DNA from: an uncultured Gammaproteobacteria bacterium
GTDB taxonomy: Bacteria > Patescibacteriota > Microgenomatia > CAYQLK01
Length of the DNA stretch: 64,000 bases
Direction: 5' to 3'
NCBI GenBank assembly: GCA_964404855.1
Contig: CAYOLO010000001.1
Coordinates: forward strand, 158,245 to 222,244
Position numbers and translations under genes: made by a program
The notes under the pieces: generated by a model
What the model was told of the DNA's origin: nothing
What the model saw: the letters and a program-made list of their open reading frames with translations, nothing else
Database searches by the model: none
Shown here: positions 7,182 through 45,325 of the stretch, one piece after another
Position numbering within the stretch: position 1 is the first letter of the stretch
Layout of the letters: each line of letters starts with the position of its first letter

Positions 7182-7243
7182 GTTACTTAGCTAATCATAA
7201 TTCTTATAGTGCTAAATGAGCCATTGTGGAGCACTTTTTTGGT

Positions 7244-10207: not shown

Positions 10208-12241
10208 TTAATTTTGTAAGTTTTTAGCAGTTATTGCGAAAGGATCAAGAAGCTGACCTTTGGCTTCGAAGGCAATTGTATCAAAGTTTAAGCCGTCAAA
10301 ATCGGTTTGAATTGTGTATTTTCCGTTAGCTAAGGGAGTAACAGATATAAATTGCCCAAGACCGTTGGTTTTAAAAGCACGAACTGGCTTGCCAGAAGTA
10401 TCAAATACGGAAATTAGTGCACCTTGAACTAGTTCTCCATTACTGTTGTAAACAATGCCATTGGGTGTGTTGGGGTGTTCAGATAGGTTGATTTTTATTT
10501 CTGCTTTTGGAGCTGCTTTGGCCTGAGTGGATTGATAATTAAATGGCTGCACGACACCGCCGTGTTTTTGGTCGCGATTTTCATTTGGTTCAGCTTTGGT
10601 TGGTTGAGCTGTTTGGTGACTATCACTAGTGGTAGGTTTGTTGAGGTTAGGACTAGGTGGAGGGGCAAAGTCCTTAGAATCTTTTTCGGAAATTTTTCCA
10701 GCTTTAATTGGTTCAAAATCTTTAACTTTTTTGATTTCCTCTATGGCAATTCCACCAGCAATACTACCCATTTGGATGGGTTTTTGTGGCTGTGGTTCGG
10801 GGTTTTCGAAGCGTTTTTTGAGTTCTTTGCTGATATCAAATTGTCTTTCGCCCAAGATTGGCAACCTACCCTTGGAGAAGTCGGGTGGGCGGGTTTTGAG
10901 TTTGCGAATACGAGTATCGCCTATTCCCTGCATGAATTGGATTTGATTACCAGGGATGGCGATAACATTGCCTCCAAAATTAATATCGGAGGCAATTTGT
11001 GCAGCAATTGAAGTTTGGCTGTTTACGGTTGAAAAATTACTGGATGGTAGAGGTGAGACGACTGTTTTTTTGCCAACATTGGGAAGTAAATGTTTTTGGA
11101 ACATGTCGGGGGTTGAGGTGTTAAACCCGCCATTTTCTGCAAGACTTTTGTTTTTCTTAAAATCTTCCCATGCTGTAGAGAATTTTTCCTGCTCCTTTTG
11201 AATACTGGCTTGTTGGCGGAGAATTTCTTGTTCCTTGGCTTTTATTTCTGCCTCAATTTGTTGTTGAGAGCGTAATATTTCGTCTAGTTCAGCAAGTTTT
11301 TGTTTGGACTCTTCAGTTGGGGCTGTAGGTTGATTCTGGGGAGTTTTCAGGTTGACTGAGGCCTCTGGTGTTAGTGGTAGGACCTTAATTTCACGATTAG
11401 GGTTAAGGTTTGCGGGGGTAGAATAAGCATCTGGGCCTTTGTTAATTAATGAAACTTCTGGAGTTTGGCTTTGTGGGTTGGTTAGTTTTTGACTAAGCAG
11501 GTTGAGCTTCTTTTGTTTTTCTTCCTCGAGTTTTATTTTAGAAGTTTCTAAGGCTTTTTGTTTTTCGATTAAAGCTAATTCTTGAGCTTTGATTTCTTCC
11601 TCTTTAGCTTTAAGTTCGGCTGGTTTGGGAGCAGCCTGAGTGGTTGTTCTGATGTTTTGGATTGGTTGTTGATACGGAGAGAAAGGATTTTGATTAATGC
11701 CTTGGTTTTGGGGAGGAGGGGCGTTGGTGGCCTTGACTGTTGATTCGAGGCTAGCGATTTGAGCTAAGAATTGACTTTCTTTTTGGTCAAAAGGGTTAAC
11801 TATTGATGAATGTGACTGTCTGGCAAGCAGTGTTTGAAGTTCTGATCTGCTGATTCTAGCTGGCATTACTGAGGAAGAAACCTGCTGAATGGGGGCAGAT
11901 TTGAGGAAATTAGCTTCTAGAAAATAAGGTACGTGGTTATCCTTGATCCAAATTCTTTGGGTGGGTCTAGTGATAGAGCGGAAAAAAGCAACAATCCACT
12001 TGTCTAATGGTCTTCCCTGTAAAGGAACTGCAGCAAAAACAATTCCAAGTAAAACAAATAGTCCTCCGACAATATATGAAAATGTTTTGGGAAGAGGGGA
12101 AAAATAAAAAACGGCGCCAATTATTCCACCTATTGCGACATAGATAAACTGGCGGATTGTAAATGGTCCGAAGAGTTTGAACTCAAACGTGGTAATGTTT
12201 TGCGGTACTGCATGCTCTTCCATAGCTATTTTGCCTGCCAA
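10208..12241 (-). CDS. PrgI/VirB3-like membrane protein fused to long coiled-coil and C-terminal beta-sandwich (carboxypeptidase-regulatory/Big-like) domain
   Basis: N-terminus AVPQNITTFEFKLFGPFTIRQFIYVAIGGIIGAVFYFSPLP... matches the PrgI-family signature (vPkdL..fk.k.ffgLT.RQ + two TM helices). A coiled coil follows (AELKAKEEEIKAQELALIEKQKALETSKIKLEEEKQKK). C-terminus GIVYNSNGELVQGALISVFDTSGKPVRAFKTNGLGQFISVTPLANGKYTIQTDFDGLNFD looks like a CarboxypepD_reg-type fold. First gene of the minus-strand operon. Confidence 0.5.
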   Translation of the reverse strand: MAGKIAMEEHAVPQNITTFEFKLFGPFTIRQFIYVAIGGIIGAVFYFSPLPKTFSYIVGGLFVLLGIVFAAVPLQGRPLDKWIVAFFRSITRPTQRIWIKDNHVPYFLEANFLKSAPIQQVSSSVMPARISRSELQTLLARQSHSSIVNPFDQKESQFLAQIASLESTVKATNAPPPQNQGINQNPFSPYQQPIQNIRTTTQAAPKPAELKAKEEEIKAQELALIEKQKALETSKIKLEEEKQKKLNLLSQKLTNPQSQTPEVSLINKGPDAYSTPANLNPNREIKVLPLTPEASVNLKTPQNQPTAPTEESKQKLAELDEILRSQQQIEAEIKAKEQEILRQQASIQKEQEKFSTAWEDFKKNKSLAENGGFNTSTPDMFQKHLLPNVGKKTVVSPLPSSNFSTVNSQTSIAAQIASDINFGGNVIAIPGNQIQFMQGIGDTRIRKLKTRPPDFSKGRLPILGERQFDISKELKKRFENPEPQPQKPIQMGSIAGGIAIEEIKKVKDFEPIKAGKISEKDSKDFAPPPSPNLNKPTTSDSHQTAQPTKAEPNENRDQKHGGVVQPFNYQSTQAKAAPKAEIKINLSEHPNTPNGIVYNSNGELVQGALISVFDTSGKPVRAFKTNGLGQFISVTPLANGKYTIQTDFDGLNFDTIAFEAKGQLLDPFAITAKNLQN

Positions 12242-29948: not shown

Positions 29949-30038
29949 GGAGGGGTCGCATAGTGGACTAGTGCGGTCGTCTTGAAAACGACTAAGGGTT
30001 TACGCCCTTCGAGAGTTCGAATCTCTCCCCCTCCGCCA
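29949..30038 (+). tRNA. tRNA-Ser (anticodon TGA), CCA encoded; attachment site of the downstream integrated element
   Basis: GGAGGGGTCGCATAGTGGACTAGTGCGGTCGTCTTGAAAACGACTAAGGGTTTACGCCCTTCGAGAGTTCGAATCTCTCCCCCTCCGCCA. Anticodon stem GTCGT/ACGAC, loop CTTGAAA, long variable arm. Confidence 0.85.
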
Positions 30039-31535
30039 AGTTTTACATTCAGCGAAATTGAAAGATGTTGCCTCGGCGCAAAGCGCCTCGGCATGGTATT
30101 TTTCCGCTATTTTGAAGGCATTTTTGAAATCCAAAACCAAAGTGCGGTCGGCAATGCGGAAGTTCGAACCAATCTTTTTGAGAAAATCCCGAATCCTTTC
30201 GGGATTTTCTTGTTGAGCGTATTTTTCGGCTTGGTTGGCGTCTTTTAGAAAGGCAATGGCAAGTTCGAACCGATTATTGCTCTTTCGCCCAAAAGCATGG
30301 ATTTTTTCTTCCAAATCTTTTTTAGCGAGAATGAGCTTGTACTTTTTAGCGGTATATTCCGCTTGCGACAAATTGCCGTCCAGTTGTAAATCAAGCAAGC
30401 GATCAAGTTTTGTTTCTATCTCTACAAGCTCATTTCTCGCTTTTTGGGCGAAAGAGCTTTCCGCTTGGGCAATTTTAATTTTTTCGTTTTCGAAAAAATT
30501 GATTGATGCGTTTGCCCAAGCGGAAGACAAAGAAACTTTTTTGATTTCTTCTTTTATTTGAAAAGTGATGGCGTCCTCTCTCGCATACCTTTGCGAACAA
30601 GGATTTTTCCGTTTGGTACATCGCAAATAATTATGCCCTTTTTGCGTTTCGGTGGTAATGAAACAGCCACACTCTCCGCAACGGAAAAATCCTCTATACA
30701 CATAAGGTTTGAGTTTTGGCGATTTCGGTTTGCTTTTGTTCGCCATCACTTCTTGGCATAAATCAAAAAGTTTCTTTGTGATAATCGGTTCGTGCTTTCC
30801 GTCATACAATTCGCCGTTGTACTCAATCATTCCATAATAGATTTTGTTTTTCAGCATATACTGATAATTTGAGACGGAAAGCATTTTGCCTTTCTTGCCA
30901 ACCAAGCCCAAGGAATTGATAATCTTTCGGATTTGAGCGAGGGGGTATTCGCCAGTTGCGTACATTTCAAAAGCCCGCTTGATATATTTTGCTTTTTCTT
31001 TGTCCACGGCAATACAGCGGGCGTTTTTGTCGTTTATATAGCCCAATGGCGCCCAAGCGGGCCATATTCCATTTCGCAATTTCTGGCGAATACCCCTCTT
31101 TATATTTTCCGAAAGATTATCCACATAATATTTTGATTGCCCAAAAGCAATGGACAACATAAATTTTCCCTGCGGTGTCGGATCAAACCAAAAAGTTGGA
31201 AATTTTAGCGTGGTAATTTTTCCAGTATCCACCAAGTAAATTATTCGTCCGCCGTCTATGGAATTACGAGCAAGGCGGTCAGGGTGCCACGCTAAAATTC
31301 CTTCGGCTTCATTTTTCTCTATGCTTGCCACCATTTCGTTAAAAATCTCTCTGCCCGGCTCTTTGGCGGTTTTGCTTTCCACAAATTCACTGACGATATT
31401 TAATCCTTCCTTTTTGGCATATTCTCGCAATTCAAACATTTGTGCCTCAATACTCAAAACCTGCCTTTCGGGTTCGTCCGTGGATTTACGGGCATAGAGA
31501 AAAATCTTTTTGGTTTGTAAATTTATGTTGTCCAT
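30000..31535 (-). CDS. Large serine recombinase (resolvase/invertase catalytic domain + recombinase domain + zinc ribbon + coiled coil)
   Basis: 511 aa. N-terminal catalytic motif IFLYARKSTDEPERQVLSIEAQ (YxRxST...Q with nucleophile Ser). Zinc ribbon CGECGCF...CTKRK, then C-terminal coiled coil. Last 13 codons overlap the 3' end of tRNA-Ser(TGA) on the opposite strand. Confidence 0.85.
   Translation of the reverse strand: MDNINLQTKKIFLYARKSTDEPERQVLSIEAQMFELREYAKKEGLNIVSEFVESKTAKEPGREIFNEMVASIEKNEAEGILAWHPDRLARNSIDGGRIIYLVDTGKITTLKFPTFWFDPTPQGKFMLSIAFGQSKYYVDNLSENIKRGIRQKLRNGIWPAWAPLGYINDKNARCIAVDKEKAKYIKRAFEMYATGEYPLAQIRKIINSLGLVGKKGKMLSVSNYQYMLKNKIYYGMIEYNGELYDGKHEPIITKKLFDLCQEVMANKSKPKSPKLKPYVYRGFFRCGECGCFITTETQKGHNYLRCTKRKNPCSQRYAREDAITFQIKEEIKKVSLSSAWANASINFFENEKIKIAQAESSFAQKARNELVEIETKLDRLLDLQLDGNLSQAEYTAKKYKLILAKKDLEEKIHAFGRKSNNRFELAIAFLKDANQAEKYAQQENPERIRDFLKKIGSNFRIADRTLVLDFKNAFKIAEKYHAEALCAEATSFNFAECKTWRRGRDSNSRRA
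30033..30228. repeat. IR-1a: inverted-repeat copy overlapping the recombinase 3' coding end (partner 31568–31783)
   Basis: Revcomp of 30039–30170 is identical to 31648–31783. Further shared blocks (aaaagattggttcg; gaaaaatacgctcaac) extend it to ~30228. Contains hairpin aaaatcccgaa-tcct-ttcgggatttt (30183–30208). Confidence 0.8.
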
Positions 31536-31567
31536 ATTGTTTTGAAATTAGTTTTTGGGCAATCAAA

Positions 31568-31783
31568 GAAAAATACGCTCAACCTTTCGCCAAAGGCGAA
31601 AGAAAAAAGATTGGTTCGCAAAATTTCATTTTGCCAGAGCTTCGCTCTGCGAACTTCCGCATTGCCGACCGCACTTTGGTTTTGGATTTCAAAAATGCCT
31701 TCAAAATAGCGGAAAAATACCATGCCGAGGCGCTTTGCGCCGAGGCAACATCTTTCAATTTCGCTGAATGTAAAACTTGGCGG
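31568..31783. repeat. IR-1b: inverted copy of the recombinase 3' end located just upstream of the recombinase start
   Basis: Encodes in the + frame ...NFRIADRTLVLDFKNAFKIAEKYHAEALCAEATSFNFAECKTWR, identical to the recombinase C-terminus. Carries a 33-nt insertion (31615–31647). A different hairpin ctttcgcc-aaa-ggcgaaag sits at the position of the IR-1a hairpin. Confidence 0.8.
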
Positions 31784-32120
31784 TGTTTTTTGGACGAAGT
31801 TCGAACATTTTTTGAGCAAAACCCCCAATAAGGAAGCCAGCCCCGCCGTCGCTCGGAAACCTCGCCACCCCGCAAAAAAGTTTTCTTCACATTTTTTGAT
31901 TTGCGCGCGCCGGATTTTTTCTTCTAAAAGGAAAAGAAAACTTTTTTGCGGGGTTCTGCTCTTAACGAGCAGGACGGCGGAGCTGTCCGCTTTTTGTATT
32001 CGCTCGGGCGTGGCGGAATTCCCCCCAAACCCCCCTTCCGCCACGCCCTCGCGGGGACGATTCTTTTTTTCGGCGGAATTTGAGGCTGTATTTTGCAAAG
32101 CAAAATGCGCCACCAAAAGG
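31778..32120. repeat. IR-2a: GC-rich palindrome-dense repeat (inverted partner 37643–37985)
   Basis: ~310 nt essentially identical to the revcomp of 37674–37985. Contains an 18-bp perfect inverted repeat CCCCGCAAAAAAGTTTTC (31868–31885) / GAAAACTTTTTTGCGGGG (31936–31953). Also a 13-bp perfect inverted repeat GGGCGTGGCGGAA (32006–32018) / TTCCGCCACGCCC (32036–32048). Long ORFs on both strands are artefacts of GC-rich palindromes. Confidence 0.8.
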
Positions 32121-32280
32121 GATGTTGCACTTGACCCACCCAACCCATTCGCGGGCAACGTTAAGGAACTCCCTAAAGATTCATTTACAAAATTGTTTAA
32201 ATTAGTTATCATTATAGTATCAAGAAAGAAACCTTTATATTATATTCTATATACTATAATGTTATATAATTAGAAAAGAT

Positions 32281-32484
32281 ATGTCAAATAATAAAATTGC
32301 TGAAAACTTAAAGAAACTACGGGCTAAAAAAGGGCTTTCCCTTGAGAAAATAGCTCGCCTTGCCGATTTATCCCTTAACACTATTGTTAAGGTTGAAAAC
32401 GGAGTAAATACAAACCCAACAATTGAAACACTAACTAAGATCGCCAAGGCGCTTGAGGTTGGCGTTGATGATTTAATAAAGTAA
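32281..32484 (+). CDS. XRE-family HTH regulator; probable R-M controller (C) protein
   Basis: 67 aa: KLRAKKGLSLEKIARLADLSLNTIVKVENGVNTNPTIETLTKIAKALEV is a canonical XRE helix-turn-helix. Size and position directly upstream of a DNA methyltransferase match C proteins. Confidence 0.65.
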   Translation: MSNNKIAENLKKLRAKKGLSLEKIARLADLSLNTIVKVENGVNTNPTIETLTKIAKALEVGVDDLIK

Positions 32485-32486
32485 TT

Positions 32487-33269
32487 ATGCCAATTTTTAA
32501 TGATTTAAATTTAGATAGTTGGAAAGAATCAGAAATTTTAACTGATAGCCTTTGGATTATTCCCGAAAGAGATAAAACAGGAAAACATAATGGCTTTTAT
32601 CACGGCAATTTTATTCCGCAAATTCCACACCAGTTGATTTTGAGATATACAAAGAAAAATGAAATTGTTTTTGATCCATTTTTAGGAAGTGGGACAACCG
32701 CCTATGAAGCGGAAAGTCTAAACAGAAATTTTATCGGCGTAGATATCCAAAAAAAGCTTGTTGATTATGTCGGTAAAAATATTGAGCCAAAAAATAATTT
32801 CTCTGATTTGATTGTTGGCGATAGCACAAAAATTGAAACTTTTGAAAAAGTAAAAGAAGTTTTAAAAAATCACAAAAAGAAAAATATTCAATTGGCAATT
32901 TTGCACCCGCCATATGCCGACATAATTAAATTTAGTGATTTAAAAGATGATTTATCAAATGCCAAATCTCTAAAAGAATTTTTAGGGAAATTTGCAGAGG
33001 TTTTAAAAAATACAATTGATATTTTAGAAAATGGTAGATATTTAGCAATTGTCATCGGCGATAAATACACAGCTGGCAAATGGATACCTTTGGGATTTTA
33101 TTGTATGAATGAAGCGCAAAAATTAGGATTGACACTAAAAAGTATTATAATTAAGAATATGGCGGGCAATCGCGCCAAACAAAACAAAGAAAGGATTTGG
33201 CGATACAGGGCGCTTTCAAGCGATTATTATATTTTTAAACACGAATATATTTTAATTTTCAAAAAATAA
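32487..33269 (+). CDS. DNA methyltransferase, beta-class N6-adenine/N4-cytosine (motif I before motif IV)
   Basis: FDPFLGSGTTAYEAESLNRNFIGVDI (AdoMet motif I, ParB-Mtase/N6_N4_Mtase type) and ILHPPYADII (motif IV (D/S)PPY). Confidence 0.8.
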   Translation: MPIFNDLNLDSWKESEILTDSLWIIPERDKTGKHNGFYHGNFIPQIPHQLILRYTKKNEIVFDPFLGSGTTAYEAESLNRNFIGVDIQKKLVDYVGKNIEPKNNFSDLIVGDSTKIETFEKVKEVLKNHKKKNIQLAILHPPYADIIKFSDLKDDLSNAKSLKEFLGKFAEVLKNTIDILENGRYLAIVIGDKYTAGKWIPLGFYCMNEAQKLGLTLKSIIIKNMAGNRAKQNKERIWRYRALSSDYYIFKHEYILIFKK

Positions 33270-33271
33270 TT

Positions 33272-34171
33272 ATGGAATACATAAAATCAAAATTATCAGA
33301 CGATTTAGCGCGAAAAATTATCGGTAGTCAAGAAAAAGCAACCGAGTATTTGTTGCGATTAAACGAGATTAAGCCAATACATGCCTTAAAATTCAAAACC
33401 ATTAGCCGTGGACAAAATGCGGGTAAAAAAGTTTTAGTTTTAGAAACAAAGGAACTTTGGAAAGCCGTTGTTGATAGCTGGGATTATGAGGAAAGCAAAA
33501 AGATAATCAGAGATATTTTCAAACAGACCGAAAAATACAAAAGCGGAAAAGAAGCTGACAATGCAATGGATGTGCTTATCAAAGAATGGCAATCGTTGAA
33601 ATTGGGCGATATTGCATGGCCATTTTCGCAGGGCGCTTTTGACGAGTTTGTGCAACGAGTAAATTCTGAAAAAGAAAACGGATTTGTTAAAGATGAAAAA
33701 GTGAAAGTCGCTGCGGTAAAATATAGGCGAATAAAAGAAATAAACACTGTTAGGAATGATTTTATAGAAACATTGATTTTTGAAAAAAATAACAATATTT
33801 TGCCGACATTAAATCATAGACGAGGTGTTGATTTTTTTATCAATGGAGTTTCTTTTGATCAAAAAGTCGCAAAAAGTCCGACAAATGAATTTAAAAGGCA
33901 CTTTAAAGATGAGTGGCGAGAAGTGGCAATCAAAAAACCTGAACTTGTCGCAGAATATCTCTACAAATTCCAAGACGAAGGCAGATTTGGGGCAGACCCG
34001 AGATTATTGGTTGTTTATATTGATGAAGATGTTTCAATTGATAAAATAAGAGAGATAATAAACAAAACCGACTTAAATAATCCGGTTGAAATCAATTTCA
34101 CTTACAAACATAAAAATCTTGGTGAGAAAAATTATAAAGTGCCTTGTTTTGTAATCTTATTGCATAACTAA
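33272..34171 (+). CDS. Putative Type II restriction endonuclease (inferred from position between two MTases; candidate PD-(D/E)XK core)
   Basis: 299 aa, no MTase motifs. Candidate catalytic core ...RRGVDFFINGVSFDQKV (D...DQK). Assignment is contextual. Confidence 0.35.
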   Translation: MEYIKSKLSDDLARKIIGSQEKATEYLLRLNEIKPIHALKFKTISRGQNAGKKVLVLETKELWKAVVDSWDYEESKKIIRDIFKQTEKYKSGKEADNAMDVLIKEWQSLKLGDIAWPFSQGAFDEFVQRVNSEKENGFVKDEKVKVAAVKYRRIKEINTVRNDFIETLIFEKNNNILPTLNHRRGVDFFINGVSFDQKVAKSPTNEFKRHFKDEWREVAIKKPELVAEYLYKFQDEGRFGADPRLLVVYIDEDVSIDKIREIINKTDLNNPVEINFTYKHKNLGEKNYKVPCFVILLHN

Positions 34172-34175
34172 AATT

Positions 34176-35249
34176 ATGAATTATATCGGCAGTAAATTAT
34201 CATTATTGGAATTTTTAGAAGAATCAATTAATAAAGTAGTTGATAAAAACTGCGATACTTTTTGTGATTTATTTGCGGGAACTGGAATTGTTGGAAGTTA
34301 TTTTAAAAGAAAGGGTTATAAAATAATCGCTAATGATATTCAATATTACAGCTATGTTTTAAATAGGCACTATATAGGAAATCACAAAGAATTAAATTTT
34401 GCAAAACTAACAAAAGAAATCCCCAATTTAAAAAGTATTGATGTAAAAAATAGGAAAAATTTTGTTTGCAATTATTTATCAGATTTAAAAGGTGTAAAAG
34501 GATTTATTTATAAAAATTATTGTCTTGGAGGATCAAAAGATCAGACAGAACCACGACAATATTTTTCCGATGAAAACGGAATGCGTTGCGATGCTATCCG
34601 TCAAAAAATTGAAAACTGGAAAGAGCAAAGTTTAATTTCTAATGACGAATATTATTTTTTGATTACAAGTTTAGTTGAGTCAATTGATAAATACGCAAAT
34701 ACGGCTTCCGTATATGGTGCTTTTCTGAAAAAACTAAAAAAGACAGCTCAAAATAATTTAATTTTAAAACCCGCTGAATTGATAATAAACGACCAAGACC
34801 ACGAAGTTTTTAACGAAGATATAAATAAAGTAGCAGGAAAAATTAAAGGCGATATTTTGTATTTAGATCCACCATATAATCAAAGACAATACGCGACAAA
34901 TTATCATATGCTTGAAACTATCGCAAAATATGATAATCCTGAAATTCATGGAAAAACTGGTTTGCGCGAATATCAAAATCAAAAGTCCCTTTATTGTTCA
35001 AGGACACAAGTAAAAAAAGCATTTAAGGATTTGATTTTGAAAGCAAAAGCAAAATATATCTTTTTAAGCTATAACAACGAGGGTTTAATGACTTTAGGCG
35101 ATATTCAAGAAATAATGAGCTTACGGGGCAAATACGGTAATTTTACGAAAGAATATAATCGTTTTAAGGCGGATAAGTCAGAAAACAGAAACTATACTGC
35201 GAATAAAACTGTTGAGTATTTGCATTATGTAGTTTGTGAAAAAGCATAA
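34176..35249 (+). CDS. Dam-family (D12 class, alpha-type) N6-adenine DNA methyltransferase
   Basis: N-terminal NYIGSKLSLLEFL...FCDLFAGTGIVG (D12-class motif X/I) and DILYLDPPYNQRQYATNYH (motif IV DPPY). Confidence 0.8.
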   Translation: MNYIGSKLSLLEFLEESINKVVDKNCDTFCDLFAGTGIVGSYFKRKGYKIIANDIQYYSYVLNRHYIGNHKELNFAKLTKEIPNLKSIDVKNRKNFVCNYLSDLKGVKGFIYKNYCLGGSKDQTEPRQYFSDENGMRCDAIRQKIENWKEQSLISNDEYYFLITSLVESIDKYANTASVYGAFLKKLKKTAQNNLILKPAELIINDQDHEVFNEDINKVAGKIKGDILYLDPPYNQRQYATNYHMLETIAKYDNPEIHGKTGLREYQNQKSLYCSRTQVKKAFKDLILKAKAKYIFLSYNNEGLMTLGDIQEIMSLRGKYGNFTKEYNRFKADKSENRNYTANKTVEYLHYVVCEKA

Positions 35250-35266
35250 ACTATAAGCTATGAAAT

Positions 35267-37642
35267 ATGAAAATCCGAAAAATACAAACTATAAAAAATT
35301 ACAAATCCTTTTCGGATTTTTCTTGGGATAAATTTTGTAAAAATTGTTCCAATAACGAACAAACACTCTCTAATTACAATGTAATCTTTGGAGAAAATGG
35401 CTCTGGGAAGTCATCAATTTGTGATATTCTGAAAAATCTTTCGCAAATTCAAAATTTTCCAAACACTTCACCCGATCTCGCGGAAATAGAAATAAAAAAT
35501 GGAAGTAATCAAGTTTATAAATTTGAAAATGGAAGTTGGACACCAAACCAGTTAAATAAAAATTCCTTTTTATTTTTTGATGTCGATTTTATTAGTGCCA
35601 ATGTTCACACGCATGGCGAACGGTCAAATCAACAAGGCAGACATTCACAAAATTCAGGGAAAATGATTATTGATTTAGACGATAAGGCAAATCAGCTAAA
35701 AATCGTTGTAAAAGAAAAGAAAGAGGAATCGGATAATTTTGACAAAATTAATGCCGATATTTTAAACAAAAATTTTACCGATAAAGACAAAGAGCTTTCC
35801 GCTATTTACAAAGATAAAAGCGAACAAGAAATAAAGGATGAAATTTCAAAAAAACAGGAAGAAGCCAAAAAAATTGAGTTGGATTTATCAGCATTACAAA
35901 AGATAAACAAAAAATATTCGGAAATAAGTCAGTTACCCATTATCAATCAGCTTTCTTTCTCTTCTTCAATATCCACAAAAGAAATCTACTCGGAATTAGT
36001 TTTGAGACAGTTAAAGGAAAAAGCGCAAGATCAGGCGGACGAAAAAATAAAAGCACATTTTGAAAAACACAAAAGATTTATTGAGACAGCCAAGGATCAA
36101 ATACCGAAGGATTATCAAAAATCCGATTGTCCGTTGTGTATGCAACCCCTCGCTAATGCTTCAAAATTTATTGAATATTATAGGATTGCTTTTGATCAAA
36201 CATATGAAAACGAGAAAAGAAAATTTTTAACGGACATACAGAATTTAAAAAGTGAATTGGAAACCTTAAAATCCTCAATAAGTCTTTTACCGACAAAAGT
36301 GCTTGGAATTTTTAATTCTTTAGAAAAAATCAAAACTGATTTTGAAATTCAGGATATTTATAAACTCGAAGAAAAAACGGAATATACCGAAAAATTTAGT
36401 AAAATTTCTATCGCTCAAATAGACGAGCTTATTTTGAATTTAGAAGCGCTGAAAAGTATTGAGCGAAAAGAAATAAAACTTTCAGAAACTTATGACAAAA
36501 TAACAGACGGAGTGAAAGAAATAGCAAGTAAAATTAATGATTTTAATAAAATAATTGACGACAAAAACAAGGTCATTTCTGCGTTCAAGGGTAAATATTC
36601 TGATCAAAATAAAATTACTAACGAAATTCAGGAAAAAACTAAAAATCAAGCAGAGCTTCAAGAAACAACCCAGTTTTTAATAAATGACAAAATTCAGTCA
36701 ATCAAAAATCAAAACGCGGCGGTTCTAAAACAAAAAGCTTTGGCTGAAGTATTGAAAAAAGCTCAAGAAGATTTGAAAAATCATCTCGCCAATAGCATAC
36801 CAGAAAGCGTTATTATAAAAATGATTGATATTTTAGGAAAGTTTAATTTAAGTTTTACGCTTGAACATATCAAACCAGCACCAAACACGAAGGACTATTC
36901 TTTTTCATTTAAAATTAAAGATCAAAAAGGGCATGAGAGAGATTTTAAAGATGGGCTTTCAGAGGGCGAGCGACAGTTGATTTCCTTGGCTTTTTTCTTT
37001 TCTATCAATGAAAGTTTGTTGGACAAATCAAATATAGTTTTGATTTTTGATGACCCAATAACCAGTTTAGATTCGCCAAATTTGAAAATACTTGCCGACT
37101 TGATTCACGAAAAAACACAGGAATTTTCGCAAGTAATTATTTTTACTCATCACCCTTTATTTTATAAATATGTGGCTAAATGCGAAAATCCTAATCCGTG
37201 CAAATTTGGCGTTTTGAAAAATCATGACGCTTTTGGTGGTAGTTTTATTTTCTTTGATCCCGGATTTGATTTAACGGCAGAAATGCAAAAGTGCAATGAG
37301 GAAATAAAACAGAACGCACAAAGCGGAAATTTAAAACCCGAAGAAATTGCCTTGAAATACGGACAACTTTTGCGTCTTGCCGTTGAAAAATTTATCAAGC
37401 ACGAATTATTGATGTGGAATAAAGAAAGTAATTTTGAAAAAGAAATAATAGCAAATTTATCAAAAAGCAAAAGTAAAATTCAAAAACTAGATGACAGTGA
37501 TTTGGAAATAATGACAAACATTCATAAATACTGCAATCATTCAAACCTTTTACATGCGGATAAAGAAAATCCGTCGGCACTTTCGGAACTGATGACACAT
37601 ATTGATAAATTTGTTATTATTCAAGATAAGGTAAATCTGTAA
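35267..37642 (+). CDS. RloC-like protein: Rad50/SMC-type split ABC ATPase with coiled-coil CxxC zinc hook and C-terminal candidate anticodon-nuclease domain
   Basis: 791 aa. Walker A GENGSGKSSICDIL near the N-terminus. ~450 aa of coiled coil with central hook DYQKSDCPLCMQPL. Signature/Q-like SEGERQLISLAFFF, Walker B/D-loop VLIFDDPITSLD, H-loop IIFTHH. C-terminal ~150 aa contains R-x3-E (RLAVE) followed by His-containing segment HKYCNHSNLLH, reminiscent of the PrrC/RloC nuclease triad. Confidence 0.5.
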   Translation: MKIRKIQTIKNYKSFSDFSWDKFCKNCSNNEQTLSNYNVIFGENGSGKSSICDILKNLSQIQNFPNTSPDLAEIEIKNGSNQVYKFENGSWTPNQLNKNSFLFFDVDFISANVHTHGERSNQQGRHSQNSGKMIIDLDDKANQLKIVVKEKKEESDNFDKINADILNKNFTDKDKELSAIYKDKSEQEIKDEISKKQEEAKKIELDLSALQKINKKYSEISQLPIINQLSFSSSISTKEIYSELVLRQLKEKAQDQADEKIKAHFEKHKRFIETAKDQIPKDYQKSDCPLCMQPLANASKFIEYYRIAFDQTYENEKRKFLTDIQNLKSELETLKSSISLLPTKVLGIFNSLEKIKTDFEIQDIYKLEEKTEYTEKFSKISIAQIDELILNLEALKSIERKEIKLSETYDKITDGVKEIASKINDFNKIIDDKNKVISAFKGKYSDQNKITNEIQEKTKNQAELQETTQFLINDKIQSIKNQNAAVLKQKALAEVLKKAQEDLKNHLANSIPESVIIKMIDILGKFNLSFTLEHIKPAPNTKDYSFSFKIKDQKGHERDFKDGLSEGERQLISLAFFFSINESLLDKSNIVLIFDDPITSLDSPNLKILADLIHEKTQEFSQVIIFTHHPLFYKYVAKCENPNPCKFGVLKNHDAFGGSFIFFDPGFDLTAEMQKCNEEIKQNAQSGNLKPEEIALKYGQLLRLAVEKFIKHELLMWNKESNFEKEIIANLSKSKSKIQKLDDSDLEIMTNIHKYCNHSNLLHADKENPSALSELMTHIDKFVIIQDKVNL

Positions 37643-37985
37643 ATTTTTGGTGGCGCGCCAGTTTTCAACTGGCACAGCCTCAAATTCCGCCGAAAAAAAG
37701 AATCGTCCCCGCGAGGGCGTGGCGGAAGGGGGGTTTGGGGGGAATTCCGCCACGCCCGAGCGAATACAAAAAGCGGACAGCTCCGCCGTCCTGCTCGTTA
37801 AGAGCAGAACCCCGCAAAAAAGTTTTCTTTTCCTTTTAGAAGAAAAAATCCGGCGCGCGCAAATCAAAAAATGTGAAGAAAACTTTTTTGCGGGGTGGCG
37901 AGGTTTCCGAGCGACGGCGGGGCTGGCTTCCTTATTGGGGGTTTTGCTCAAAAAATGTTCGAACTTCGTCCAAAAAACACCGCCA
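37643..37985. repeat. IR-2b: GC-rich palindrome-dense repeat (inverted partner of 31778–32120), ending in CCGCCA
   Basis: See IR-2a. Contains the same 18-bp and 13-bp perfect internal palindromes in mirrored order. Ends ...CCAAAAAACACCGCCA|GGG at 37985. Confidence 0.8.
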
Positions 37986-38096
37986 GGGTTTTTGTTCGGT
38001 GTACAATTAATTTGTTATGTATTTTGGGCAAAAAGTAGTTGGATTTAATCAATTTTCATTTAATAAATTTTTAATAGAGGGGCGGTGAGTAGGTAA

Positions 38097-38519
38097 ATGT
38101 TTGCAACAGAAATAAACTATTTAGCAATGGTTGTAGCAGGTCTTGCGACTTATGCAATTGGAGCGTTGTGGTACTCACCTGTTCTTTTTATGAACGAATG
38201 GATGAAGGTAGCTGGCTTGGATAAAAAGAAAAATGCCAAAGTTGCTCAATCGCAGATGGTTCGAATGTACACTTTAGGGTTAATAGCTAATATGATCGCC
38301 GCTTTTGTTTTGGCAAGACTATTGGTCTGGACTAGAGCAGGGGATGATTTGGTTGGAGCTCTAAAAATCGGCGGTTGGTTGTGGCTCGGTTTTATAGCTG
38401 TTTGGATGATTAACAGCTGGTTGTACGAAAGCAAGCCAATTAAGTATTTTGTAATTAATTCTGGTTATGCCCTAGTAACTGTTCTTGTTGGAGCTGCGAT
38501 TCTTACGCTCTGGAGATAA
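38097..38519 (+). CDS. Small 3–4-TM membrane protein, hypothetical (DUF1761-like?)
   Basis: 140 aa. GALWYSPVLFMNEWMK motif and four hydrophobic helices. Confidence 0.4.
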   Translation: MFATEINYLAMVVAGLATYAIGALWYSPVLFMNEWMKVAGLDKKKNAKVAQSQMVRMYTLGLIANMIAAFVLARLLVWTRAGDDLVGALKIGGWLWLGFIAVWMINSWLYESKPIKYFVINSGYALVTVLVGAAILTLWR

Positions 38520-40226: not shown

Positions 40227-40306
40227 ATGGATATTTTAGTACGAAATTAAGAAAAAAGCCGACTTACACTCTTATTTGGAAGTCGGCTTTTGTTGTTGAT
40301 GTTGAA

Positions 40307-40798
40307 CTACTTGAGCGCGGTAAGCGTTTTGACAGCTTCGCGCATGGCGACGTCGAGGTAGATGGAGATGTTGGGATCACCGTCGTGGGCGGTTCCTGGG
40401 CACGGAATGTTGAGCCATTCTTCCCAGCGAATGTAGCAGCCTTGTTTGGCAGAATCTGCTCCGTATTGGGCGAAAAGGAAGTGTGTTGCATCTTCCTCGC
40501 TCATTTCTGGAGTTGTGACGCCGAACGCCGCACGGAGGTCATCACTGGTGAGGATTGTTCGTCCGGTGGTTTTGGCACGAGGGGATTGGATGACTTCCCA
40601 GTCCACGAACCATCGGTCAGTGCTAAGCTCGTCAGTCTGGCTGACGGTGAGTTTGGCCGCACTTCCCAGGATGACGAGCAGTCGTTTGGCTGCGTCGAAA
40701 CTTTTGACGTGCATTTTGAACCCGTGATGGTGGAACCACACAGGACGACCCATCCTTAGTTCAGGTTGGGTTCTGGTCATGGTTGAGGTTTGTGACAA
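40307..40798 (-). CDS. Hypothetical protein in a locally GC-rich segment
   Basis: 163 aa, no TM. Coding region ~55% GC versus ~38–42% elsewhere. No motif recognised. Confidence 0.35.
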   Translation of the reverse strand: MSQTSTMTRTQPELRMGRPVWFHHHGFKMHVKSFDAAKRLLVILGSAAKLTVSQTDELSTDRWFVDWEVIQSPRAKTTGRTILTSDDLRAAFGVTTPEMSEEDATHFLFAQYGADSAKQGCYIRWEEWLNIPCPGTAHDGDPNISIYLDVAMREAVKTLTALK

Positions 40799-40901
40799 GC
40801 GTGACCGCCTTTGTCTGGTAGTTTTAGGGGTGCTGTTAGAGTGCGAGGCGGAGAATACACTTATTTTGAAGCTATGTCAATTGTTAATTAACCTATAATA
40901 T

Positions 40902-41360
40902 TTGATTTTTGAGGCTAAATTTGATATAATTAGGGTTGGTAGCACTTTTGACAGGGAGCTTATTGGTTTGAGTAGTGACAGTTTGATCCAGTTCGGTGTT
41001 TTGGATGTGGCTCACAGTGACCCAAGCAGGACGCTGTGTGAATGCAATCTTAACGATTGCTCGGTTCAAATCATCGATGTCGAGGTGGAGATTCCGCTTG
41101 CGAACCACTACCACAAACTCAAAGATGAGACGTTTGTTCTCGTCGAGGGAGGTGGAGTGTTCTACGGTGTGGCTGTTGACGAGTACGGCAATAGGCTGGG
41201 AGAAGTCCAAGCCAGGCAGCTACTTGAAGGCGCTGTCATCAAGGTTCCGGCTTTTTTCGCTCACACTTTCATCCTTAGGTCTGGCAGTCGGCTGGTTTGC
41301 TTTTCGAGTAAGCCGTTCAACCCAGAAAACACAGATTTGCATCCACTTCAGCTTGTCTGA
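40902..41360 (+). CDS. Cupin-fold protein, WxcM/FdtA C-terminal-domain-like (sugar ketoisomerase-type), hypothetical
   Basis: 152 aa. ...ANHYHKLKDETFVLVEGGGVFYGV... resembles the His-containing beta-strand motifs of WxcM-like cupins. Weak. Confidence 0.3.
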   Translation: MIFEAKFDIIRVGSTFDRELIGLSSDSLIQFGVLDVAHSDPSRTLCECNLNDCSVQIIDVEVEIPLANHYHKLKDETFVLVEGGGVFYGVAVDEYGNRLGEVQARQLLEGAVIKVPAFFAHTFILRSGSRLVCFSSKPFNPENTDLHPLQLV

Positions 41361-41411
41361 AGAAGTGTGTGCAAAAGTCCTTTGCCCTCGATTAATTTCG
41401 GGGGCATTTTT

Positions 41412-41882: not shown

Positions 41883-42079
41883 TTTTTTATTTGACTGTCC
41901 TGGTTGCAAGAAATCTGGCGGAGAGGGAGGGATTGGATTTTTAGTCCATTTACCTCAAAACTCGTAATTTATTTATAAAATTTTAACAAATTACTCGTTT
42001 TTCGTTACCGAACCCTTGTGGTGGTTCAAAACAACCTACCCTCATATTTTTCATTACTGCCAACGCAGTTACGAAAAAT

Positions 42080-42172
<93 letters not shown>

Positions 42173-42200
42173 CAGAGCTTGTATATTCTACCTGACTGGC

Positions 42201-43601: not shown

Positions 43602-44028
43602 TTTCATATTTGGAGTAATAAAGGTCGATAGTTGTTTTTATAGTTACTCGCCAAAATTTTTCCAAAAACTGCCTCCGACATTTTTGTCATCAATTTGGCT
43701 ACGTCCTGCGTTAAGAATGAATTAAATATTCATTCTCTCGTCGAGACATGAAAACCTGAAACTAAAAGGCAAGAAAAAGCCCGCTTGGAAACCAAGCGGG
43801 CTAGGGGTTGACGGCTCGAAGCCGAGAAAGAGGTGTTTGTGGCCTGAAGTCCAAGCTTAACGGATAGGTCCGTTGGCTAGAGCGAGAGCTTGGTTAAAAG
43901 CGACTGAAACACAGTTTCTCTGGTTTGAGCCAGGATGTGGAGACGAATTTCTTCGACATGGGGAGGTTGAGGTGCAAGCGAGCGCGCGTGAGCGCTAACC
44001 CTCCCTCAGGCGGACGGTCGAGGACGTC

Positions 44029-44988
44029 TTAGATCTGCAGGGCAAAGGCGGCCGGTTTGGGCTGCCAAAGCTGATGCATCGAACTCGAAGGGGAGCCGCG
44101 GGCGATGTTGCGGCCGTGTTCGGTGTTCGTGTTGCGGAGGAGTTCGGATTCGCCGGGGGTCGCTGCTGCGTTGTTGCGATGAACGGTGAAGACTGTGCCG
44201 GCGACGATCGGTGCGATGAGCGGATACGCGGATCCTGCTCCAAAGCGCTTGAGCGACGAAATCATGGCCGTTCCGGCTGAGGCGATGGCCCTTCGGAAAT
44301 ACGAGTTCGAGGTTCTGACGGCGCCGACGAATGTGATGAAGGCGGCGTGTAGTCGACCGAAGATCGCGCTGGTGACAGGATGCGTCTTGCGCGGGCTCGT
44401 CGTGGTGTTTTCGGCGGACAGCGTGTCGATGGCCTTGGCCACATGCGATGCACGTTTAAGGCCGAATCGTTTGCTTATCCCCGTGTCGTCGTCAAGTGAT
44501 GCCGAGTTGAAGAATGTGGTGCCGGCAAAACTTCGAGAACCCCTCGAGGTATGACGATGACCCATTTCTTGCCGTCGGATGTACCGAGGACTGGCGTTTT
44601 CAACGAGCGGGCCCATGTTGGCTACTCGCAGAAGGACCACGAAAGCGACCGTGACGGCGACGAATGCCCAGAGCTCCACAGGTCGGGACTGAGCGGTGGT
44701 GTTGCCGATGGTCGAGGCGACGGAGTCGGTGATGCCGAAGAAGACGTTCGCGACGTCGGTGACCGCACTGGTTGTGCTGCCGCGTATGTCGGGAAGGTTC
44801 GTATTCGGAGTCGAGAGGTCGTTGGTCGAAGGCGAGATTGCCTGCGAATCGACGGGCTCAGACAGGCTGGCTGCCGAAGCGCTCGACCATTCAGTCGCGA
44901 GCGTTACGAAGACGGCGAAGGCAGCGATGATGGCGATGAGCCACGCGATGCGTTTTCCGCCGACCGTTTGGGTAATTTCCCTGCTCAA
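44029..44988 (-). CDS. Hypothetical membrane protein encoded in an anomalously GC-rich (~60%) island
   Basis: 319 aa, longest ORF of an island (≈43780–45010) where all six frames are open. Two predicted TM helices (IAWLIAIIAAFAVFVTLA; LWAFVAVTVAFVVLL). No family recognised. Coding status uncertain. Confidence 0.3.
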   Translation of the reverse strand: MSREITQTVGGKRIAWLIAIIAAFAVFVTLATEWSSASAASLSEPVDSQAISPSTNDLSTPNTNLPDIRGSTTSAVTDVANVFFGITDSVASTIGNTTAQSRPVELWAFVAVTVAFVVLLRVANMGPLVENASPRYIRRQEMGHRHTSRGSRSFAGTTFFNSASLDDDTGISKRFGLKRASHVAKAIDTLSAENTTTSPRKTHPVTSAIFGRLHAAFITFVGAVRTSNSYFRRAIASAGTAMISSLKRFGAGSAYPLIAPIVAGTVFTVHRNNAAATPGESELLRNTNTEHGRNIARGSPSSSMHQLWQPKPAAFALQI

Positions 44989-45325
44989 TAGACTGGTCCT
45001 CCTTTTGTGAGGGAGTCTAGTTTTTAGACTTAAACCCTAATGTTTCAAGGGTCCAAGTCGTGTTGGTTGAAAATGAAAACTGGTCGGAACAAGTATCAGG
45101 TCTTTGTGGCTACCCTAAGATAGAGTAGTCCGAAATTCCTCCTTTTAATTGGAAAGGTACGACACTTTTCACTGGCTGTGAAATTGATGTCTAGCTAAAT
45201 TGTACACCCCGAATGCAAGTTTTTGGACTACTGTAATAAGATTGGTTGAAAAAGAAAGGATGTAAATACTCAAAATGGCTTCGTTTTTGGGTATTTTATG
45301 GTAATAGTGTGATATATTCCTAGTC

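Follow-up and report, generated by a model that had tools for sequence, protein, structure and literature searches.

A double inverted repeat around a recombinase gene and a defence cassette, probably the duplicated attachment-site flanks of a large serine recombinase element in tRNA-Ser

Elements moved by large serine integrases (phiC31, Bxb1, A118/LI, SPbeta SprA, SCCmec Ccr and Tn4451 TnpX) have a three-domain recombinase, hybrid junctions at a very short shared core, an adjoining conserved host gene and a half-site motif lying 5 bp farther out in attP than in attB, features that recur at the locus described here. In SSV1-type integrases attP lies inside the integrase gene; integration alters the recombinase frame and the native gene exists only when the element is excised. 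Further partial likenesses are found in the yeast 2-micron plasmid and the chloroplast inverted repeats, with long identical arms, two flippable segments and concerted evolution; in integron attC sites and IS200/IS605 ends, where the shape of hairpins is conserved rather than their sequence; and in Tn3/gamma-delta res, a serine-recombinase site between the recombinase gene and a divergent gene.

The present locus lies in the window, that is, the whole stretch of 64,000 nt that was analysed, in which two 312-nt inverted repeats (the Q arms) bracket a defence cassette. In our reading the Q arms are the duplicated attachment-site flanks of a tRNA-Ser-inserted large serine recombinase element of ~7.9 kb (about 30039-37985), and we put the probability of this at about 0.72. 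The features of the locus are as follows.

29949-30038, + strand: tRNA-Ser(tga), proposed integration target (ARAGORN, Rfam)
30000-31535, - strand: large serine recombinase gene, 511 aa (Pfam, NCBIfam)
30033-30166, - strand: arm A, final 134 nt of the recombinase frame as far as the core, the element's half of the left junction (100% inverted repeat, alignment)
31584-31649, + strand: inner edge of A', with three covarying hairpins (hp1 31584-31602, hp2 31618-31634, hp3 31635-31649)
31650-31783, + strand: arm A', perfect inverted copy of arm A, no gene body attached
31778-31783, + strand: internal crossover core TGGCGG, site s2 (alignment)
31778-32089, + strand: arm Q-in (IR-2a), with tail codons (31784-31831), long hairpin (31867-31954), terminator-like hairpin (31972-31988) and 13-bp hairpin (32006-32048) (repeat search, gapped alignment)
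32090-32118, + strand: "head" hairpin ATTTTGCAAAGCAAAAT, then GCGCCACCAAAA
32119-32280, no strand: conserved C-rich leader and AT-rich spacer
32281-37642, + strand: cargo block (Pfam, PADLOC, NCBIfam)
32281-32484, + strand: HTH control protein
32487-33269, + strand: N4/N6 methyltransferase
33272-34171, + strand: 299-aa protein, candidate nuclease
34176-35249, + strand: Dam-like methyltransferase
35267-37642, + strand: AAA_13 / PDC-S06 ATPase
37645-37673, - strand: "tail" hairpin GCCAGTTGAAAACTGGC (37657-37673), then GCGCCACCAAAA (37645-37656)
37674-37985, - strand: arm Q-out (IR-2b), element-side half of the right junction
37986-38096, + strand: host flank expected directly after tRNA-Ser in an empty site
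38097-38519: DUF1761 gene, after the host flank

The raw repeat search called the arms as 31772-32089 and 37674-37991 (318 nt, 99%). Gapped alignment confined both mismatches to a chance extension, and from 31778 (TGGCGG) to 32089 (GGCTGT) all 312 nt (100%) match the reverse complement of 37674-37985, which confirms the near-identical inverted arms of more than 300 nt proposed in the initial annotation, coordinates included. A perfect repeat of this length within 64 kb cannot have arisen by chance. Within the window the Q arm occurs in just these two copies, and the other GC-rich islands there were rejected as extra copies on comparison. The two shorter perfect repeats described earlier are both present in the arm, namely an 18-bp repeat with CCCCGCAAAAAAGTTTTC (31868-31885) and GAAAACTTTTTTGCGGGG (31936-31953) as its pairing halves, 50 nt apart, and a 13-bp repeat in which GGGCGTGGCGGAA (32006-32018) pairs with TTCCGCCACGCCC (32036-32048). 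So is the replacement of one inner-edge palindrome, ATTTTGCAAAGCAAAAT (32090-32106), by another, GCCAGTTGAAAACTGGC (37657-37673, minus strand), after which identity resumes at GCGCCACCAAAA (32107-32118 and 37645-37656); the second palindrome had been placed approximately, 3 nt away from its true position.

The repeats are genuine, but they do not stand alone, although the initial annotation had viewed them by themselves. A second perfect inverted repeat (30033-30166 and 31650-31783, 134 nt, 100%) brackets the recombinase gene and abuts the first, overlapping it by the 6 nt of the core TGGCGG. Since the two repeats meet at this common core, 31650-32089 can be read as an intact, inverted internal copy of the attP that the element ends would give on joining. 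Three sites in the window, the two hybrid sites that bound the element and the internal one, have TGGCGG in common: s1, the left crossover core, where CCGCCA (30033-30038) forms the final 6 nt of tRNA-Ser(tga); s2, the internal core; and s3, the CCGCCA core of Q-out at 37980-37985. With three sites sharing a core, the P repeat (134 nt) brackets the recombinase and the Q repeat (312 nt) the defence cargo.

In the proposed mechanism, the 3' end of tRNA-Ser(tga) would have been the site at which the large serine recombinase integrated the element. Site s1 would then join the tRNA to the recombinase 3' end (the P arm), s3 would join the Q arm to the DNA downstream of the tRNA, and s2 (31650-32089) would join P to Q as an intact putative attP, inverted and internal to the element. 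The attP half-site would take up about the first 25 nt of Q past the core, so that the attP-like site at s2 would consist of A', the core and the first ~25 nt of Q. Recombination of s1 with s3 would circularise the element. Gene conversion or recombination of the arms may keep the internal copy identical; this copy might provide a reserve of both an active attP and the gene's native 3' end, and the identical arms would allow inversion of the cargo module and exchange between elements.

The recombinase carries the Pfam domains Resolvase (PF00239), Recombinase (PF07508) and Zn_ribbon_recom (PF13408), with E = 2e-20 to 5e-7, and matches CcrB and XisF weakly in NCBIfam. Its likeness to phages and solved structures is distant only, with identity below 29% to the phage integrases of the collection searched. 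The terminal 10 codons of its gene are read from the tRNA-Ser antisense strand, while the native C-terminal tail, CFLDEVRTFFEQNPQ and stop, is encoded by 31784-31831, the first 51 nt of the Q repeat being coding; codons 9-14 of this tail vary mostly in the third position (summed entropy 3.1 / 2.8 / 6.7). The initial annotation had dismissed the two-strand reading frames here as artefacts, which is wrong for this conserved tail. The first 16 codons of Q, which make up the tail, overlap the proposed attP half-site. The native tail would be used only when the recombinase is joined to Q, for example in an excised circle; the remainder of Q is a hairpin-rich 3' region. A small protein encoded by A' was also considered and rejected, since in 7 of 27 copies the frame upstream stays open for no more than 0-55 nt.

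Both the Q half-site and the T-arm of the tRNA carry TTCGAAC, which in Q lies 5 bp farther from the core (16 nt from GGCGG there, against 11 nt in the half-site of the tRNA; the shift is seen in one half-site only). The same spacing is kept in a ~62%-identical Elusimicrobia branch. In the Listeria integrase, the zinc-ribbon motif lies 5 bp nearer the centre in attB than in attP (PMC3783163), and the spacing difference seen here, for the one half-site, matches that shift.

The layout tRNA-Ser / A-rec-A'.Q-cargo-Q' / flank was found at 20 further loci whose upstream sequence is long enough; these were assembled with different programs, belong to different phylum-level lineages and always lie beside a tRNA-Ser. 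All four tRNA-Ser isoacceptors are among the targets, and the species matched number more than 534. Within a locus the arms mostly share 97-100% identity, compared with about 81% (median) for A and 88-98% for Q between loci, and the recombinase is 90-97% identical across class-level lineages. Across 21 loci the crossover core is GCGG in most, and CGG only in L035. At most loci with readable junctions the recombinase runs into the tRNA and the upstream copy is P/Q. The flanks of s3 are diverse and mostly terminator-like hairpins, which supports the model because such hairpins are expected just downstream of a tRNA gene. At L008, L041 and L015 the internal site has recombined or been converted with a tRNA. 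Hundreds of candidate-phyla-radiation bacteria show the double-repeat layout, with varied anti-phage genes and with hairpin shape kept over sequence.

The cargo varies from locus to locus and consists mostly of restriction or defence genes; at L046 it is inverted. In the window, the 299-aa frame had no matches in Pfam, PADLOC or NCBIfam. Long perfect inverted repeats around a varying cargo would also suit the terminal inverted repeats of an autonomous foldback, MITE-like or composite transposon carrying the defence cassette, and derivatives without the recombinase are known (L136, L173). These derivatives, however, still have the two cores together with 21 nt of P-arm sequence and hence are deletions. 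The Q arm always starts at the recombinase core, in ~126 scorable starts on 120 metagenome contigs (a tally of sites and not of contigs, several contigs having two Q copies) as well as in the fetched loci, and its neighbour is either the recombinase 3' end or a terminator-like flank. Neither the arms nor the identifiable cargo genes include a transposase, and target-site duplications beyond the core are absent, as are tRNA/Q and Q'/Q joints. The further copies anticipated by the initial annotation do exist on many metagenome contigs, but only at the att junctions of the element; the MITE-like family that it had raised as a question is not borne out as a free-standing one, since arms elsewhere always sit at the recombinase core and the marks of a MITE, dispersed copies independent of an autonomous element together with target-site duplications, were not found. 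We consider a transposon of this kind very unlikely. The lack of tRNA/Q and Q'/Q joints, together with the deletion origin of the recombinase-less copies, also speaks against a scheme of two modules that excise independently through palindromic joints, for which the GC crossover would have to be non-polar.

Some observations fit the serine recombinase element less well. Serine integrases need only about 50 bp, so perfect identity over 134 + 312 nt is not required by the model. Two equivalent attP sites in the circle should make both integration orientations common, whereas one dominates among the readable junctions and, separately, in the Q-anchored census described below, and the complete tRNA duplicated at 100% identity in L008 is impossible for conservative recombination; both count against the model. 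The predicted empty-site 23-mer (tRNA 3' end plus flank) had no match in the metagenome contigs, neither an excised circle nor an inversion isomer was seen directly, and no recombination directionality factor was identified for the element.

A close look at the hairpins shows that the region folds better than 100 of 100 shuffles (z = -5.4 as DNA and -4.6 as RNA). The conservation of structure over sequence suggested earlier is borne out by strong covariation of the three hairpins at the A' inner edge, and compensatory changes are also seen in the long hairpin and the 13-bp hairpin within the Q arms. The compensatory swap of the inner palindromes turns out to be a family-wide rule, with head and tail types marking opposite inner ends in many genomes and the head type on the cargo-start side in 13 other loci. 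Stem pairs are 93.5% Watson-Crick (G-T 11 versus A-C 10 of 897 cells), and loops are mostly 3 nt, with GAA, TTC and AAA triloops. Stems that are nearly pure Watson-Crick and free of G-U strand bias favour a DNA-level feature over a small RNA, and the comparative data lean towards folded or palindromic DNA rather than RNA read from a single strand. In the element, the hairpins may work at the DNA level as cruciforms or in single strands.

The alternative that the GC-rich arms are structured RNA, either a small RNA, as also proposed earlier, or a leader or 3' UTR of the recombinase mRNA, would have the hairpins kept for termination, stability or antisense control via the 134-nt self-complementarity. 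The structure does covary strongly, with fold z-scores of -4.6 to -5.4, a terminator-like hairpin and T-run follow the native stop codon, and a promoter-like site at 32287-32259 on the minus strand (with a divergent one at 32184-32212 on the plus strand, both consensus matches only) would put the entire region in the recombinase leader. However, G-T and A-C pairs are equally and very rare, which is unusual under selection on one strand, the loops are mostly 3 nt, and the first 51 nt of the repeat are protein-coding. No Rfam family matches the repeats at the gathering score; at the E-value threshold only sub-threshold microRNA-precursor models appeared, on the long hairpin. An RNA role for the arms thus seems unlikely.

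The same strand-symmetric, purely Watson-Crick covariation, the triloops and the position-specific head and tail hairpins flanking the cargo would be compatible with recombination sites read as folded single-stranded DNA, the analogy with attC and IS200/IS605 ends drawn in the initial annotation. This analogy fails on the enzymes, with no matching integrase or transposase in the Pfam, PADLOC and NCBIfam results: neither an integron integrase (IntI) nor a HUH transposase is among the annotated genes of the element, and the sole recombinase identified, the large serine enzyme, works on duplex DNA. The stems are perfect and lack the extrahelical bases that define attC, and long perfect inverted repeats are present, whereas IS200/IS605 elements have a Y1 HUH transposase, imperfect hairpins in subterminal position and no terminal inverted repeats. 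The cargo boundaries lie beyond the hairpins, no shared cleavage motif was seen, and we regard such sites as highly improbable.

An inverted chimera, or integrated and circular forms collapsed together in assembly, might be suspected because the repeat, at 140 nt, is exactly as long as the k-1 overlap for MEGAHIT's largest k-mer, 141, and many homologue contigs end at it. The architecture nevertheless recurs in more than 20 independent assemblies from various assemblers, including a 1.06-Mb contig, the two Q copies differ in their family-conserved inner hairpins and flanks, and the A' copy has covarying hairpins of its own, so that an artefact is hardly credible. The coincidence of repeat and overlap, unresolvable at k = 141, does make native-tail homologues unreliable as a sign of circles or flipped forms, of which a Q-anchored census of 51 junctions gives only 1-2; there, 49 are P/Q preceded by the A' hairpins and 2 were scored as recombinase-linked, L084 being real and L182 an A' copy without hp2-3.

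A more far-reaching proposal, which we hold to be doubtful, is that the double inverted repeat is a working device rather than a leftover, a tail store combined with an invertible, exchangeable cassette. On integration the recombinase would lose its conserved native tail, which the internal copy would preserve along with an active attP, and recombination of the 134-nt arms would restore the native form. Through the identical Q arms, with head and tail DNA hairpins as markers, the defence cargo could be inverted and exchanged, and hairpin blocks in both orientations would fit entry into new hosts as whichever single strand is taken up, for instance in natural transformation. If this is right, the element would represent a cassette platform of a new class, driven by a recombinase and dispersing immunity genes among candidate-phyla-radiation bacteria.

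On the preferred reading of a tRNA-Ser-inserted serine recombinase element, a very widespread mobile element is defined in candidate-phyla-radiation bacteria, for which few have been described so far, and it would carry restriction-modification and other defence genes between them. Genome engineering could be interested in the ready putative attP/attB pair of this so far uncharacterised serine integrase, since attB would be a tRNA-Ser 3' end in which one half-site may vary freely. The internal inverted attP and the covarying head and tail DNA hairpins are strongly conserved and unpredicted by current serine-integrase models, and the repeat architecture explains why metagenome assemblies break at these loci.

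Literature searches did not find the internal inverted attP layout or the present element family described. Compared with the known serine-integrase elements, attP here lies within the final codons of the recombinase gene, a single attB half-site (the tRNA) is conserved, and a second intact attP is present, inverted and internal, with identical flanks of 134 + 312 nt. As in SSV1, the native recombinase gene would exist only in the excised form, although the SSV1 enzyme is a tyrosine recombinase whose gene is split in two, whereas here only the final 15 codons are exchanged and the element retains a second copy of the 3' end. In the 2-micron plasmid Flp acts at a site in each repeat, while attP x attP recombination is not normal for serine integrases and a single orientation dominates here. 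In contrast to those of attC and IS200/IS605, the hairpins are perfect and would be accessory to a duplex att site rather than the crossover point. Lastly, Tn3/gamma-delta res has three short sub-sites for a small resolvase, and by analogy with it the present site, lying between divergent genes, may double as an operator.

The long inverted arms (Q arms) that the initial annotation had recorded as near-identical are real: the repeat tool places them at 31772-32089 / 37674-37991 (318 nt, 99%), and by gapped alignment the 312 nt from 31778 (TGGCGG) to 32089 (GGCTGT) match 37674-37985, read as its reverse complement, at every position, the sole mismatches falling in a chance extension beyond them. 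Also present as annotated are the 18-bp perfect repeat with its 50-nt spacer (31868-31885 / 31936-31953), the 13-bp perfect repeat (32006-32018 / 32036-32048), the pair of unlike 17-nt palindromes found at the arms' inner boundaries (32090-32106 and, on the minus strand, 37657-37673) and the 12-nt identity GCGCCACCAAAA resuming after them. A whole-window repeat scan revealed another inverted repeat, likewise perfect (30033-30166 / 31650-31783, 134 nt, 100%; arm A, also called P, and its inverted copy A'), which encloses the gene of a 511-aa large serine recombinase. Its right arm shares exactly 6 nt, TGGCGG, with the left Q arm, its left arm terminates in CCGCCA, the final 6 nt of a tRNA-Ser(tga), and the far end of the 312-nt repeat is also CCGCCA (37980-37985); together these define three sites, s1 to s3, with a single core.

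Features of the element in the window
29949-30038, tRNA-Ser(tga), last 6 nt CCGCCA
30000-31535, minus strand, large serine recombinase gene, 511 aa, with Resolvase, Recombinase and zinc ribbon domains
s1, tRNA joined to the recombinase 3' end (arm P)
31650-32089, s2, P joined to Q
s3, Q joined to the host flank
Between the Q arms, cargo: HTH control protein
Between the Q arms, cargo: two DNA methyltransferases
Between the Q arms, cargo: 299-aa protein of no assigned function
Between the Q arms, cargo: AAA_13 / PDC-S06 ATPase

Site s2 is the exact product expected from joining both element ends, yet it lies inverted within the element. Across loci the three sites have only GCGG in common (CGG in one locus), which corresponds to the acceptor-stem end, the discriminator base and the first C of CCA. 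The s3 flanks are mutually unrelated and typically contain terminator-like hairpins, as expected directly after a tRNA gene. In the half-site contributed by the tRNA, TTCGAAC starts 11 nt past GGCGG; in Q it starts 16 nt past, and both spacings recur in the Elusimicrobia branch. This matches the Listeria integrase, whose zinc-ribbon motif is displaced by 5 bp between attB and attP half-sites (PMC3783163). The 5-bp shift and the shared core identify s2 as the predicted attP and s1 and s3 as predicted hybrid sites. Comparison of the loci thus shows the arms to be the flanks of a putative serine-integrase attP, present in one split copy (s1 and s3) and in a second copy that is intact and inverted (s2). 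A 23-mer search of metagenome contigs for the predicted empty site gave no match. At one locus (L158:5603-5648) two Q half-sites overlap at TTCGAA to make a 46-bp palindrome, which has crossover cores at both ends and adjoins Q-like sequence from another recombinase family.

Recombinase homologues number in the thousands, the best 120 having 60-94% identity and C-terminal lengths of ~500 to 580 aa. With one genome per species scanned, at least 534 relatives were confirmed among the 599 candidate stretches listed; their best 80 loci are mostly from Patescibacteria, and a branch at ~62% identity is mainly from Elusimicrobia. The arms occur in 20 other loci, counted among those with enough upstream DNA, in the same two-repeat layout: tRNA-Ser, A, recombinase, A' fused to Q, cargo, outer arm Q', flank. 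In these loci Q arms measure 155-420 nt and cargo 1.3-6.9 kb, while A arms stay at ~134 nt even in the distant branch. Arms within one locus are usually 97-100% identical; between loci, identity is 81% (median) for A arms and 88-98% for Q arms of the window's type. All four tRNA-Ser isoacceptors serve as integration targets, and cargo varies by locus but is mostly defence:
type I, II and III restriction-modification genes
GmrSD
OLD/PtuA-like ATPase
PbeA / type IV nuclease
HEC-05

The split attP with its inverted intact copy is, from this sequence comparison, a conserved trait of a large tRNA-Ser-targeting, defence-carrying element family. That the Q arms form an independent MITE or composite transposon we consider very improbable; the att-site reading accounts for the core-anchored position of the arms better than any rival. 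An assembly artefact is effectively excluded, since the same layout comes from differing projects and assemblers, including one contig of 1.06 Mb.

Several neighbouring features were recorded. Another element may have left its scar at 41911-41951, where part of a tRNA-Ser 3' end is copied 165 nt ahead of the 3' end of the tRNA-Ser(gct) gene (42081-42173, minus strand). GC-rich stretches (0.50-0.62) at 40300-40800, 40950-41400 and 44000-45000, near a cluster of four tRNA-Ser genes, are not further repeat copies and appear to be protein-coding, of foreign composition. Elsewhere, a 70%-identical recombinase adjoins tRNA-Gln(ttg) rather than tRNA-Ser (L053:2514-2588), possibly after a switch of target; locus L028 (1921-2028 / 6057-6164) holds a second recombinase (6268-7719) of another subfamily (49% identity), the Q arm of one element abutting the P arm of the other with no tRNA between, in a nested or tandem array.

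The annotation had dismissed the two-strand open reading frames in the arms as artefacts. This fails for the first 16 codons of Q, which continue the recombinase frame (CFLDEVRTFFEQNPQ, then a stop) and vary as coding sequence: among 117 distinct sequences, codons past the ~25-bp half-site vary mainly at the third position (summed entropy 3.1 / 2.8 / 6.7), Asn being AAT 55 / AAC 51 and Pro occurring in all four codons. Such third-position variation indicates that some state of the element has the native tail translated. In the integrated state that dominates, the recombinase runs into the tRNA (tails such as RGRDSNPR), so the native tail must belong to a Q-joined form of the gene, most simply the excised circle. 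The A' copy has no conserved coding frame.

Structure-over-sequence conservation, claimed from the window, extends to the family. Three hairpins (hp1-hp3) lie at the inner edge of A' (31584-31649). In a plain 23-locus alignment, pairing cells make up 81%, against 67% when shuffled (0/500 shuffles reach 81%), with double changes at 15/21 pairs. A covariance model made from this alignment has one match upstream of every recombinase; over 71 distinct sequences 90.3% of cells pair (68% shuffled, 39-54% with slid partners) and 19/21 pairs show compensatory changes. The Q long hairpin and 13-bp hairpin show them at 20/61 predicted pairs, and other Q sequence types keep the same hairpin layout. The annotated hairpin "swap" proved to be a family-wide rule: the cargo-start arm carries a head type, ATTT(T/C)G(C/T)-NNN-GC(A/G)AAAT, in 14/21 loci, window included, and the cargo-end arm a tail type, GCCA..TGGC, in 13/14 of those (L001 lacks it), with several compensated variants; GCGCCRCC follows each type. 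Locus L046, one of the 14, has head and tail exchanged, which indicates that the cargo module is inverted there.

That the arms are attC- or IS200-like single-strand sites, as such hairpins might suggest, is very unlikely given their core-anchored position. A structured RNA is favoured by folding, in which the region beats all shuffles (z = -5.4 as DNA, -4.6 as RNA), and part of Q may be one. Against it, the 897 paired cells of full-length copies are 93.5% Watson-Crick (11 G-T, 10 A-C), loops are of 3 nt, there is no strand bias and Rfam has no match; for the arms as a whole we hold it unlikely. The few wobble pairs, lack of strand bias and short loops argue for a DNA-level palindrome or hairpin over an RNA under selection on a single strand. 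C-rich loops (CCCCCCAAACCCCCC and CCCACCCAACCC) are conserved at 32019-32035 and 32125-32150 and at the same positions in relatives; in several relatives the resulting G-tracts of the opposite strand could fold into a G-quadruplex. A perfect hairpin of 12 bp (GAAAATCCCGAA AGGA TTCGGGATTTTC) within the recombinase coding sequence (30182-30209) is homologous in position to hp1 and has compensated variants in relatives.

A recombinase running into the tRNA, with P-Q upstream, is the dominant arrangement, present in most loci with readable junctions. In a Q-anchored census 49 P-Q junctions are preceded by A' hairpins, against 2 scored as recombinase-joined, of which L182 is an A' copy without hp2-3 and L084 is real (tRNA, degenerate P remnant, recombinase with native tail, Q and HTH cargo, no repeat). 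No tRNA-Q or Q'-Q joints were found at ~126 scorable Q starts on 120 metagenome contigs; contig-derived isomer frequencies are unreliable because the 140-nt repeat is beyond the resolution of short-read assemblers. In L008, L041 and L015 the internal site is P joined to tRNA, which indicates that the internal attP has recombined or been converted in evolution. Two loci (L136, L173) keep tRNA, 21 nt of P and Q, a deletion of the recombinase module. In L008 two inverted complete tRNA-Ser(gga) genes, 100% identical (9669-9758 and 11498-11587), surround the recombinase module, and the P arms next to them carry unlike alleles in their core-proximal ~35 nt; duplication of a whole tRNA is beyond what conservative site-specific recombination can produce. 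Two or more alleles of this ~35-nt segment exist, with SFNFAECKTW and SYDFTKSENW as encoded peptides. A and A' are mismatched (74-86% identity) in L002, L008, L017 and L027, four of the loci examined, and this suggests that elements have undergone mosaic exchange.

Under the attP reading, excision by s1 x s3 would yield a circle that gives the recombinase back its native tail and terminator region (Q), and integration by this gene-linked attP would give the dominant form. Inter-arm recombination or gene conversion could uphold arm identity, the arms might permit cargo inversion (as in L046) and cargo exchange, and the internal attP could react with other tRNA-Ser genes. Possible roles of the internal copy and the hairpins are a switch restoring the native recombinase gene, or an operator-like one.

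The recombinase has <29% identity to phage integrases in the collection searched. In the literature searched we found no account of an internal inverted attP with long identical flanks, of an attP in a recombinase's last codons with a stored spare 3' end, or of position-specific covarying hairpins. Both the class of recombinase and the logic of its integration are already known.
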